IMG/VR virus record: IMGVR_UViG_2695420889_000019
DNA: 5,109 bases
Origin: a virus
Taxonomy: Duplodnaviria > Heunggongvirae > Uroviricota > Caudoviricetes
Strand: one strand, 5' to 3'
Shown: positions 358 to 1,364 of the stretch, in pieces
Layout of the letters: the number at the start of each line of letters is the position of its first letter
Position numbering within the stretch: the first letter of the stretch is position 1
Made by a program: the position numbers and the translations under genes
Notes under the pieces: generated by a model
Database searches by the model: none
Seen by the model: only the letters and a program-made list of their open reading frames with translations
What the model was told of the DNA's origin: nothing

Positions 358-879
358 ATGCGCATGAATGTTTTCGAAATGGAAGGGTTTCTTCGCGGGA
401 AATGTGTACCGCGAGATCTGAAAGTGAACGAAACAAATGCTGAGTACCTAGTACGTAAGTTCGACGCGCTTGAAGCTAAATACGAGACGCTGGCGGCGGA
501 GAATGCGCGGCTGAATAAATTTATCGTACAGAGTTGCTATGTGTTTAATGGCGAGCAGGATGAAATATCTGATGCGTATATCTGCGCAGCAGGCGGAGGT
601 ATGCCGCAAATTCCAGCCACCGATGCTTTTCTGGCTGAAATTCGTGCGGAGGCTCGCAACGAGGGAATTAACTATACCGCAAGTCGTCTTGCTGCTGCTT
701 TCAACCACGGATTTATCAATAAGTCTTTACGTGAAGTTTTCGACGTTACGCGCATGATTCTGTCAGCGAAAGAAGAGTTAGCTAATGAACCGCATCCGAT
801 TGATGGCCTGTCCGGTGAATATGCGGAGAAATCCCTTGAAGAATGGGCGGAGCAGATTCGCAAAGGAGGCAACCAGTGA
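358..879 (+). CDS. Lambdoid-prophage early protein, possibly YbcN-family (weak recollection); predicted coiled-coil near the N-terminus
   Basis: 173-codon ORF; GGAG at 346-349 lies 8 nt before ATG 358. An alternative start at ATG 364 (MNVFEMEG...) overlaps the stop of a possible upstream mini-ORF. Its TGA (877-879) overlaps the GTG start of the next gene. My recollection that YbcN-type proteins begin MNVFEMEG is unverified. Confidence 0.7.
   Translation: MRMNVFEMEGFLRGKCVPRDLKVNETNAEYLVRKFDALEAKYETLAAENARLNKFIVQSCYVFNGEQDEISDAYICAAGGGMPQIPATDAFLAEIRAEARNEGINYTASRLAAAFNHGFINKSLREVFDVTRMILSAKEELANEPHPIDGLSGEYAEKSLEEWAEQIRKGGNQ
866..879 (+). repeat. Direct repeat copy 1 of GAGGCAACCAGTGA (RBS plus GTG start plus stop-overlap junction)
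   Basis: Identical 14-mer at 866-879 and 1347-1360, with similar flanks (AAAGGAGGCAACCAGTGAC versus AAAGAGGCAACCAGTGAG). Confidence 0.9.
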
Positions 880-1364
880 CTGGACATGCAGCAATCCTCG
901 ACATGTGCTGTGGCAGTCGCATGTTCTGGTTCGATAAGAATGACGACCGGGCGATATTTAGCGACATCAGAAAGGAAGAGCACACATTATGTGATGGACG
1001 ACGCCTGATAATTAGCCCTGACCTGATAGCAGATTTTCGTGCATTACCATTTGCAGACGCATCGTTTCCGGTTGTTGTATTCGACCCTCCGCATCTTGAG
1101 CGTGTTGGTGATAACGCCTGGATGGGAAAGAAATATGGACGGCTGAATAAAGATACCTGGCGTGATGATTTGCGGCAGGGATTTAAAGAAGCCTTTCGTG
1201 TGTTGTGGCCAAACGGTGTTCTGGTTTTTAAATGGAATGAAACGCAAATACCGGTAAGCCAGATTTTGGCACTGACAGACAGAAAACCTGTTATCGGTCA
1301 ACGAACAGGAAAAAACGATAAAACCAACTGGATTATTTTTATGAAAGAGGCAACCAGTGAGTAA
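876..1364 (+). CDS. Minimal SAM-dependent methyltransferase (162 aa), Rossmann core with G-rich motif I and DPPH motif IV; putative phage orphan DNA methyltransferase
   Basis: GTG 876 is preceded by AAGGAGG (863-869) at 6 nt spacing. Motif I-like ILDMCCGS sits at residues 7-14 and VVVFDPPH ends at residues 70-73 (nt 1083-1094), the spacing and order of class-I MTases such as RsmD or gamma-class N6-adenine enzymes. No room for a target-recognition domain. An in-frame ATG at 843 has a poor RBS and is less likely. Confidence 0.7.
   Translation: MTGHAAILDMCCGSRMFWFDKNDDRAIFSDIRKEEHTLCDGRRLIISPDLIADFRALPFADASFPVVVFDPPHLERVGDNAWMGKKYGRLNKDTWRDDLRQGFKEAFRVLWPNGVLVFKWNETQIPVSQILALTDRKPVIGQRTGKNDKTNWIIFMKEATSE
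1347..1360 (+). repeat. Direct repeat copy 2 of GAGGCAACCAGTGA
   Basis: See copy 1. Together the two copies bracket the methyltransferase ORF exactly. Confidence 0.9.

Follow-up and report, generated by a model that had tools for sequence, protein, structure and literature searches.

A single-domain methyltransferase of a large phage family, encoded in the early region of a lambdoid prophage, with a possible role as an orphan DNA adenine methylase

PamA, from the S. aureus phage mPhi11, is only 141 aa long, carries an NPPY motif at residues 64-67 and has been found experimentally to methylate GATC (PMC12435837). Small beta-class N6/N4 phage methylases, relatives of CcrM, DpnA and M.MboIIA, have a (D)PP(Y/H) motif; for the beta-class enzyme SpSL1_16 of pneumophage SpSL1, its authors could not detect adenine methylation. 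A minimal methyltransferase of the MT-A70 family, M.ECPA8_3172P of Stx phage PA8 (208 aa), is reported (preprint only) to methylate 16S rRNA and to need an adjacent partner subunit, PNB-2; it lacks a recognition domain and was originally annotated as a DNA adenine methylase. The RNA m2G methyltransferases, among them Trm11, TrmN/Trm14, RsmC and RsmD, are cellular housekeeping enzymes and not phage genes. Of these, Trm11 and TrmN have a THUMP domain, RsmC is duplicated and RsmD is a single-domain enzyme.

We analysed a 162-aa methyltransferase gene in a window of 5,109 nt (the whole stretch of viral DNA under study, IMG/VR record IMGVR_UViG_2695420889_000019). The genome of E. coli O145:H28 strain RM12581 is 100% identical to positions 270-5109 of the window, and the locus 12607-13095 there corresponds to window positions 876-1364. 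The gene is already annotated and catalogued, it belongs to a very large phage family, and its product is identical to RefSeq WP_000145667 (WP_000145667.1 in RM12581). The surrounding prophage is lambdoid, of the mEp460/SfV type, and is integrated at dusA; the gene occupies its early-left accessory ('ea') region. The features of the locus are as follows (window coordinates).

358-879: Ea22-like ORF, the upstream neighbour.
863-879, plus strand: translational-coupling junction (Shine-Dalgarno, GTG start, TGA overlap), from reading of the sequence.
863-879, plus strand: first copy of a 17-nt direct repeat, family D1, AAGGAGGCAACCAGTGA, from a repeat search.
876-1364, plus strand: class I SAM-dependent methyltransferase ORF, 162 aa, stop included (PGAP, PHROG 954, PADLOC, AlphaFold).
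894-917, plus strand: motif I, ILDMCCGS, residues 7-14, the SAM-binding loop (alignment; match to PDB 1ve3).
963-965, plus strand: D30, acidic residue of motif II, closing strand 2 (invariant; aligns to the D of GVDIS in 1ve3).
1032-1037, plus strand: D53-F54, motif III (conserved in 90% of members or more; opposite GD of 1ve3 in the alignment).
1083-1094, plus strand: motif IV, D70-P71-P72-H73 (sequence; family alignment).
1095-1214, plus strand: loop and helix after motif IV, LERVG...KKYG.L...W...GF.EAFRVL (profile comparison; conservation map).
1227-1235, plus strand: F118-K119-W120, at the end of the central strand (family alignment).
1344-1360, plus strand: second copy of the 17-nt junction repeat, AAAGAGGCAACCAGTGA, from the repeat search.
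1357-1668: membrane-like ORF of 103 aa, the downstream neighbour.
1668-2240: DEDDh 3'-5' exonuclease (Pfam Rv2179c-like, E 4e-75).
2277-2558: PrtN-type excisionase.

A preliminary description of this DNA had placed the 162-aa ORF at 876-1364, and the same coding sequence is annotated by PGAP in RM12581. The open frame spans 843-1364. PGAP and the homologues start at the GTG at 876, which shares bases (GTGA) with the TGA that ends the upstream Ea22-like ORF and has a good ribosome-binding site, AAGGAGG at 863-869, six bases ahead of it. Translation ends at a TAA (1362-1364). The ORF is intact, with its SAM-binding residues D9, G13, D30 and D53 and the D-P-P-H catalytic motif kept.

The textbook form of the class I methyltransferase fold is a seven-stranded sheet. 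The AlphaFold model of the protein, generated from a 128-sequence alignment that included relatives 51-65% identical, had a pLDDT of 91.6; a first model, from close homologues only (74-95% identical), had a pLDDT of 60.9 and was discarded. In the model a single compact Rossmann-type domain takes up all 162 residues. DPPH directly follows the strand at residues 64-70, and the 89 residues after it are all used by core strands 5-7 and two helices. Motif I, DPPH and the 89 downstream residues were positioned as the preliminary description had them, and the absence of a target-recognition domain that it noted was borne out by the model and holds across the family. The Rossmann-type fold, the glycine-rich motif I loop and the acidic residue ending strand 2 place the protein among the class I SAM-dependent methyltransferases. 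A motif IV of the form (D/N/S)-P-P-(Y/F/W/H) after strand 4 places it among the amino-methyltransferases, DPPH being a signature of enzymes that act on an exocyclic or amide nitrogen.

The family profile aligned motif I to LDLACG of PH0226 (PDB 1ve3, E 7.8e-5). Among 55 sequences 45-61% identical to the query, D9, G13, D30, P71 and P72 were invariant, and D70 and H73 occurred in 90% or more. By the logic of the class I fold, D30 would be expected to bind the ribose of SAM and D53-F54 to contact its adenine. Motif VIII of M.TaqI comprises F196 and K199, and by this parallel F118-K119-W120, of which W120 is invariant in the family and the other two occur in at least 90% of members, are candidate base-stacking or binding residues. 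A conservation and insertion map delineated three variable loops (residues 33-46, 74-84 and 139-150), the second of which, bearing indels like the others (here after residues 75-79), lies within the segment following motif IV. The protein is mildly basic (pI 7.7; family median 8.6).

PHROG 954, labelled DNA methyltransferase, matched the protein at E 1.7e-87, and its homologues form 5,847 clusters at 90% identity and 2,008 representatives at 50% identity; these values and the invariant motif residues put the match far beyond chance. The family is almost wholly confined to phages and prophages, and it is common: the gene is present, in up to five copies, in 944 (17%) of the 5,426 complete E. 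coli genomes, and members are found in hundreds of phages of unrelated hosts (256 phage records, from Gram-negative and Gram-positive hosts) and in thousands of metagenomic clusters. Plasmid records with a member are rare (61 of 72,556), two of the 61 being classed as conjugative. Members from phages of Proteobacteria, Firmicutes, Actinobacteria and Bacteroidetes are ~50% identical, share a conserved core of ~150 aa and have no hypervariable domain. A screen of 55 longer representatives found no recurrent fused domain, only single cases of ASCH, DUF6291, Ea22 and a polysaccharide-synthesis fragment; a Lar-like zinc ribbon considered at the N-terminus of P0131 received no confirmation from Pfam and was dropped. 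Our literature search returned no experimental characterisation of any family member and no reported substrate, and the database label of DNA methyltransferase may be transferred annotation throughout. Several enzymes were considered as characterised homologues and set aside: Hia5/Hin1523, which are alpha-class and 281 aa long; SpSL1_16, which is beta-class and of a different family; and PA8 gp5 and a Serratia phage methylase, both of MT-A70 type.

Two REBASE-derived PADLOC models matched the protein, one for a Type II methyltransferase (MTase_II, 8e-73) and one for an orphan methyltransferase (oMTase, 5e-48). At E<=0.1, 55 family members matched ten Pfam families, with Dam and MT-A70 not among the ten. 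Methyltransf_11 was matched by all 55, and the commonest amino-methyltransferase match was N6_N4_Mtase, in 18 of the 55 (weak, best E 9.4e-4); the query itself had no match to this model (PF01555), and the Pfam gathering threshold was not reached. An NCBIfam search gave no usable match, and a search of the PDB with the single protein sequence gave nothing meaningful.

The family profile resembled that of the SpSL1_16 family (82% probability, E 1e-5) in a local match of 54 columns, residues 58-113, which spans motif IV, the next loop and a helix; the two families have in common the loop/helix pattern K..YG...W......F.E.FRV after motif IV. SpSL1_16 is, like the present protein, a phage orphan of ~160-225 aa from an early/replication module, and the (D)PP(Y/H) motif of the small beta-class phage methylases is shared as well. 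In the beta class, however, motif IV comes before motif I, and the matched SAM-binding part of SpSL1_16 is at its C-terminus, whereas in the present protein motif I (7-14) comes before motif IV (70-73). The circular permutation that defines the beta class (IV, recognition region, I) is thus absent, as is any segment between the catalytic and SAM-binding halves that could serve for recognition. M.TaqI, of the gamma class, shares the order I then IV and an (N/D)PPx motif, but its large C-terminal DNA-recognition domain is missing here and throughout the family, and the sequence similarity is not significant. PamA has its NPPY at almost the same position as the present DPPH (70-73); like the present protein it is a phage orphan of minimal size in which no discrete recognition domain is set apart. 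Judging by size and motif position, PamA is probably a member of PF05869. A PF05869 Dam-type methylase is also encoded by the same prophage in RM12581.

Profile comparisons with the families that the preliminary description had named were all low: 0.1% for this PF05869 Dam, 0.5% for MT-A70 (phage PA8 gp5), and 3% over 12 columns for E. coli RsmD, the last being indicative only. Nor did the protein have a Pfam match to PF05869 or to MT-A70 (PF05063). Under the established motif rules of Malone, Blumenthal and Cheng (1995), the usual motif of N4-cytosine enzymes is SPPY/F and not D-P-P-x. Because the motif here is DPPH, N4-cytosine is the less likely of the two DNA substrates first proposed for an orphan enzyme, and N6-adenine is favoured.

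Our best explanation, held at roughly even confidence, is that the protein is an early-expressed orphan DNA adenine methyltransferase with a fixed, short or relaxed specificity. The gene encodes the free-standing catalytic core of a SAM-dependent amino-methyltransferase. It is probably co-transcribed with its same-strand neighbours downstream of the repressor gene, so that a lysogen would not express it and the product would appear early, once the prophage is induced or a cell infected. The methyl group would go to an exocyclic amino nitrogen, with N6 of DNA adenine as the most probable acceptor. Target recognition would fall to the three variable loops that surround the active site, with no domain set apart for it, and specificity would accordingly be short, fixed or relaxed. 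For the phage, the gain would be that its replicating DNA is shielded from host restriction.

The sequence evidence leans weakly toward the DNA amino-methyltransferases. Family genes always lay in those accessory modules of temperate phages that serve early functions, replication or recombination, a context that supports action on DNA because orphan DNA methylases normally sit there. PamA provides the precedent that ~140-210 aa can suffice for a DNA methylase, and since it methylates GATC, the missing specificity domain is no argument against sequence-specific DNA methylation. No restriction endonuclease gene was found next to the methyltransferase gene, as the preliminary description had said of this locus, and the same was true of 80 IMG/VR viral-contig loci and six other phage contexts. 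By analogy with PNB-2 we also sought a conserved partner gene by clustering the flanking ORFs of the 80 loci; no family dominated, the largest cluster being Ea22-like (14 of 144). With neither nuclease nor conserved neighbour in the 80 viral loci and several unrelated phages, the proposed orphan status is supported. If the protein is a DNA adenine methylase that lacks a recognition domain, it offers a compact tool and shows once more how small a DNA methylase can be.

Several observations count against action on DNA. The protein is only mildly basic, and the same prophage already has its PF05869 methylase. Rarity on plasmids also weighs against it, as we would expect a general anti-restriction methylase to be commoner there. 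In the E. coli RM13514 lysogen, which has an identical gene, the methylome contains GATC and CTGCAG only and no extra motif; this fits silence of an early operon and is equally compatible with an enzyme that is not a DNA methylase. Conservation across host phyla, with no hypervariable domain, suits a universally conserved target, which may be a fixed short DNA motif, any adenine or, equally, a conserved RNA site. The initial judgement that sequence cannot decide the substrate holds for the predicted structure too.

We give a smaller but appreciable weight to the broader view that the family consists of minimal RNA or nucleotide amino-methyltransferases acting early in infection on a universally conserved host target, which could be a guanine or adenine of rRNA or tRNA, or a nucleotide signal. 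If so, the label 'DNA methyltransferase' would be hiding a widespread function by which phages take over the host or counter its defences. In the narrower form of this view, the main rival to the DNA reading and in our estimate somewhat less likely still, the protein would form m2G or m6A at a universally conserved rRNA or tRNA site after infection, acting as a single domain on assembled ribosomal subunits in the manner of RsmD, or on tRNA; the outcome might be a translation machinery that is protected or retuned, or a host defence against RNA that is blunted.

The structural neighbours in the predicted model lean toward this class. The top PDB match by Foldseek was the tRNA m2G10 enzyme Trm11 (E 9e-6, TM 0.56), and the m4,2C rRNA synthase 8vyd, TrmM and M.TaqI (E 1.3e-4, TM 0.50) were also matched; all scores, however, were in the generic class I range (TM 0.5-0.6), and a BFVD fold search returned one family member and otherwise generic methyltransferases. 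Trm11, TrmN/Trm14, RsmC and RsmD have their topology in common with the present protein, including the unpermuted order of motif I then IV, and show the nearest overall structural similarity. The motif IV histidine points by analogy in the same direction and against DNA: the consensus is D/N-P/L-P-Y/F/H, and the histidine is found in the tRNA m2G enzyme TrmN (NPPH), where it is modelled as stacking on guanosine (PMC3367198). TrmN was the only documented His variant of motif IV that we found, none being found among DNA methylases. High conservation across host phyla would suit a universal RNA target, and the RM13514 methylome, with no extra DNA motif, is consistent with one. The reported action of M.ECPA8_3172P on 16S rRNA adds a functional parallel; its gene comes from the corresponding early accessory region, beside the integrase, of a lambdoid phage of E. 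coli.

Against this, the protein has no THUMP or other RNA-binding module, and its 162 residues leave no room for THUMP. RsmD (PF03602) was not matched by the query and only weakly by two of 55 relatives (E at least 9e-3), and UPF0020, the model relevant to Trm11/TrmN/RlmL, likewise by two of 55 members (E at least 0.076); the profile match to HI0767 in the PDB had E 0.097. The proposal of an RsmD-like enzyme borrowed by the phage was therefore not upheld by either the Pfam or the profile comparison, and a family so large and phage-specific is not a recent loan from the host. M.ECPA8_3172P belongs to a different family, with DPPW near its N-terminus and a Pfam MT-A70 match of 1.3e-22, and it requires its partner subunit, whereas the present family has no conserved neighbour. 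RNA methyltransferases are also very rare in phages relative to DNA methyltransferases. A target in RNA or elsewhere, if real, would mean that a large set of phage genes annotated as 'DNA methylase' is mislabelled and that a new early phage function is at hand.

It is improbable, in our estimate, that the substrate is something other than a nucleic-acid polymer, such as a protein amide or amine (as for PrmC/HemK on glutamine), or a free nucleotide or signalling molecule with an amino group in exocyclic position. (D/N)PPx enzymes do include protein glutamine and lysine methyltransferases, and the universal match to Methyltransf_11, the weakly basic character and the lack of a nucleic-acid-binding domain would be compatible with such a substrate. 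The Methyltransf_11 and Methyltransf_25 models, however, cover only the generic SAM-binding half, and in its catalytic half the protein looks like the beta-class DNA methylases; none of the adjacent genes points to metabolism or signalling, and we know of no phage precedent.

It is very improbable that the protein serves as the methylase of a restriction-modification system, or that it is what remains of a larger enzyme after decay and loss of activity. In favour of this, the best PADLOC model is named 'Type II methyltransferase', and in some records the gene is split or truncated (Klebsiella phage ST16-OXA48phi5.1, for example, has two CDS). Against it, no linked nuclease was present at any of the loci covered, the extensions of longer members are heterogeneous and not a lost domain, and the core of 150 aa keeps every cofactor and catalytic residue across the 2,008 representatives at 50% identity, which indicates purifying selection on a complete enzyme.

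The two ends of the gene carry closely similar junctions. The 17-nt repeat copies are 94% identical and spaced 481 nt apart; the second sits just 5' of the methyltransferase stop codon, and the next ORF takes its ribosome-binding site and its GTG start (1357) from it. Upstream in the window there is a copy of IS600, which may separate the methyltransferase gene from its promoter.

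The ORF proposed in the preliminary description at window positions 876-1364 (plus strand) is real: the PGAP CDS, the starts of its homologues and PHROG 954 (E 1.7e-87) agree on it. Its frame is open from 843, and the GTG at 876, six bases past an AAGGAGG, is the start in PGAP and in homologues; it overlaps the TGA that ends the Ea22-like ORF upstream. The 162-aa product carries ILDMCCGS (motif I, the SAM-binding loop) at residues 7-14 and DPPH (motif IV) at residues 70-73, where both had been placed. PGAP names it 'class I SAM-dependent methyltransferase' (WP_000145667.1), and Pfam yields only sub-threshold generic matches to Methyltransf_11 and Methyltransf_25. 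Two PADLOC models, which we take to be REBASE-derived, match it as 'Type II methyltransferase' (8e-73) and 'orphan methyltransferase' (5e-48); the family is therefore one already on record as a putative DNA methylase, a label that is annotation and no evidence of activity. The gene belongs to a known and annotated kind, the orphan phage methyltransferase.

Alignment of 55 family members, each just 45-61% identical to the query, showed D9, G13, D30, R32, P48, V67, P71, P72, R108 and W120 to be invariant, with D70, H73, D53, F54, Y87, G88, W95, F118 and K119 retained in at least 90% of members. The family profile aligned with the archaeal methyltransferase PH0226 such that D9/G13, D30 and D53 fell on motifs I, II and III (E 7.8e-5), indicating that the expected class I SAM-binding residues are conserved. 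Variable or insertion-bearing sites were limited to three loops (residues 33-46, 74-84 and 139-150). Longer members have unrelated N- or C-terminal extensions, many resembling read-through into adjoining Ea22-type genes, and no extra domain recurs among them. The lack of a target-recognition domain, first noticed in this copy, is therefore a trait of the whole family and not a peculiarity of the query.

Individual family proteins depart from this plan. P0268 (294 aa) has one full copy and a second copy without motif I, P0269 (223 aa) repeats the N-terminal segment of ~50 residues only, and P0143 is fused with an ASCH domain (Pfam E 2.9e-4). An ASCH-type gene also lies four genes upstream of the methyltransferase copy of Gordonia phage Bosnia (291-644 of that locus); these ASCH-type cases are too few for calling an association.

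A first AlphaFold model from close homologues alone was poor (pLDDT 60.9). The model of the query from 128 sequences, including relatives 51-65% identical, reached pLDDT 91.6 and pTM 0.88, and is a single domain with strands at 7-11, 26-30, 34-37, 43-46, 64-70, 110-121, 138-144 and 150-156 and only three helices (82-87, 95-109 and 127-131). After strands 1-3 it has loops and a hairpin where Rossmann methyltransferases normally have helices. Residues 12-63 of this confident model (m120ab7dde918) are helix-free between strands 1, 2, 3 and 4, with aromatic-rich loops and a beta-hairpin (34-46) instead. As modelled, the sheet may leave one face exposed to a substrate or for dimerisation.

In one Pfam scan, Methyltransf_11 and Methyltransf_25 matched nearly all 55 members; among amino-methyltransferase families, N6_N4_Mtase matched 18, RsmD 2 and UPF0020 2, and Dam and MT-A70 were absent from the ten families matching at E<=0.1. 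Profile comparison linked the family to that of SpSL1_16, a small beta-class phage DNA methylase and kin of CcrM, DpnA and M.MboIIA, with 82% probability (E 1e-5) over 54 columns spanning motif IV, the following loop and a helix. The kinships that the preliminary description had put forward for such a comparison failed to emerge: 3% over 12 columns for E. coli RsmD (indicative only), 0.5% for the MT-A70 enzyme of phage PA8 and 0.1% for the PF05869 Dam of the same prophage. The catalytic half is thus most like beta-class DNA methylases. The family differs from these in motif order, however, having I before IV in common with the gamma class and with RNA m2G enzymes; beta-class enzymes are absent from the structural match lists, probably owing to this permutation. 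A stripped-down fold and gamma-like motif order combined with a beta-like catalytic segment is mildly unusual.

The methyltransferase lies in a same-strand run of Ea22-like, methyltransferase, 103-aa ORF, DEDDh exonuclease and excisionase genes whose start and stop codons overlap. The whole run is downstream of the repressor gene, and no promoter-like site was found within it on its strand. Features of this run are as follows.

863-879: 17-nt direct repeat, copy 1, AAGGAGGCAACCAGTGA; its GTG overlaps the preceding ORF's stop codon
1344-1360: 17-nt direct repeat, copy 2, AAAGAGGCAACCAGTGA; just before the methyltransferase stop
1357-1668, plus strand: 103-aa ORF, PHROG 2531 (E 1e-26); its GTG start overlaps the methyltransferase end
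2562-2587: strong bidirectional terminator after the excisionase

The repeat copies, each with a ribosome-binding site and GTG start, bracket the methyltransferase ORF exactly, and the repeat looks like a junction for accessory-gene cassette exchange among lambdoid phages. Phage mEp460 has different genes at this position, and Stx2a phages match window 1-879 only (IS element and Ea22-like ORF), leaving the methyltransferase uncovered. The 103-aa ORF has an N-terminal hydrophobic stretch (~residues 8-33) and no PGAP annotation in E. coli O145:H28 RM12581; it was not found as a conserved methyltransferase neighbour in 80 viral-contig loci.

Elsewhere the family gene follows the O and P replication genes (Klebsiella phage), lies amid recombination genes (Streptococcus phage T12), adjoins a C5-cytosine methylase (Gordonia phage Bosnia) or follows a repressor or helicase (Acinetobacter and metagenomic contigs). 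ORFs adjoining it in the 80 loci form many small clusters, the biggest Ea22-like (14/144), others being DUF551, TraR-type zinc fingers and unknowns. Neither a nuclease nor a conserved partner was found beside it there, and the window's gene run likewise bears out the earlier remark that no nuclease accompanies it.

The gene is carried by 944 of 5,426 complete E. coli genomes, at up to five copies per genome. Homologues form 5,847 clusters at 90% identity and 2,008 representatives at 50%, and the 256 phage records with a member include phages of Streptococcus, Vibrio, Acinetobacter, Porphyromonas, Listeria, Gordonia, Enterococcus, Lactobacillus and Staphylococcus. On plasmids the family is rare (61/72,556 records, mostly non-mobilisable); its distribution is phage-restricted. 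The gene itself would not surprise a specialist, but the family is very abundant.

The protein would be made early after induction or infection, and is predicted to bind SAM and then transfer a methyl group to an exocyclic amino group, with the three variable loops recognising the target. We regard adenine N6 in DNA as the most probable target, giving it roughly an even chance, on four grounds. Phages encode DNA methylases very commonly but RNA methylases very rarely; beta-class DNA methylases are the nearest match to the catalytic segment; the genomic location is one usual for phage orphan DNA methylases; and an Asp at motif IV points to adenine more than to cytosine. Specificity is probably uniform across the family, either for a short motif or relaxed, since there is no recognition domain and identity is ~50% across host phyla. 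Specific DNA methylation is possible without such a domain, as PamA of S. aureus phage mPhi11 (141 aa, NPPY at 64-67) methylates GATC (PMC12435837).

Our literature searches found no paper testing any family member. The SMRT methylome of E. coli O145:H28 RM13514, which has the identical gene, contains only GATC and CTGCAG (plus minor DTGCAG), all credited to other enzymes. Either the lysogen does not express the gene, or its product is no DNA adenine methylase. Prophage orphan methylases occur in most group A streptococcal strains, where they are barely transcribed and have no methylation attributable to them.

Action on RNA, which we consider unlikely, would fit the structural neighbours, the motif order and the His of motif IV, found in the fourth position also in TrmN, a tRNA m2G enzyme (PMC3367198). 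It has a precedent in Stx phage PA8, whose gp5 (MT-A70; M.ECPA8_3172P) alone is non-specific and with its neighbour PNB-2 methylates 16S rRNA (preprint), so phage minimal methylases labelled DNA enzymes can have RNA targets.

PA8 locus, 2228-3282: gp5 (208 aa) and gp6, PNB-2 (143 aa), in the corresponding early accessory region beside the integrase

A substrate other than nucleic acid seems more doubtful still. The ORF is an intact orphan, with conserved cofactor site and D-P-P-H motif in a single compact domain; it is very unlikely to serve restriction-modification or to be a dead remnant.

Window 270-5109 is 100% identical to the RM12581 and RM13514 chromosomes, where it covers a lambdoid prophage's right end together with neighbouring chromosome. 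Piecewise matches across 270-3763 mark the prophage as a relative of mEp460.

1-284, minus strand: IS600 end (orfA), 98.6% identical to the RM12581 IS600 copy
2606-2779: reverse-strand gene, 57 aa, PHROG 2741; mEp460 counterpart among gp24 and gp23
2976-3512: reverse-strand gene, 178 aa, PHROG 4350; mEp460 counterpart among gp24 and gp23
3656-3760: dusA fragment (PGAP), then a DUF2713 gene, then zur

The annotated dusA fragment and the genes after it place the prophage-chromosome junction near 3763 (~3656-3763), where mEp460 similarity stops. The IS600 end is inverted and differently placed relative to the RM12581 copy; the insertion truncates a yfdR/HD-hydrolase gene ~90 bp ahead of the Ea22-like ORF, and a search of 5,426 complete E. 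coli genomes found its junction nowhere. This IS600 copy may cut the methyltransferase off from the early-left promoter.

Besides this gene, the prophage encodes another small methylase, of 216 aa and the PF05869 'Dam' family (E 7.7e-46; 3359-4012 of the RM12581 locus), in its replication/nin region ~9 kb from the window; the phage thus has two unrelated domain-poor methyltransferases. The mEp460 map has the attachment site between gp23 and the integrase, so integration leaves the excisionase, with two small reverse-strand genes, at one prophage end, within the window, and the integrase must occupy the opposite end. Both reverse-strand genes were without match in Pfam, NCBIfam and PADLOC scans. 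They occupy the interval from the excisionase to the attachment site, a location typical of prophage-expressed genes.
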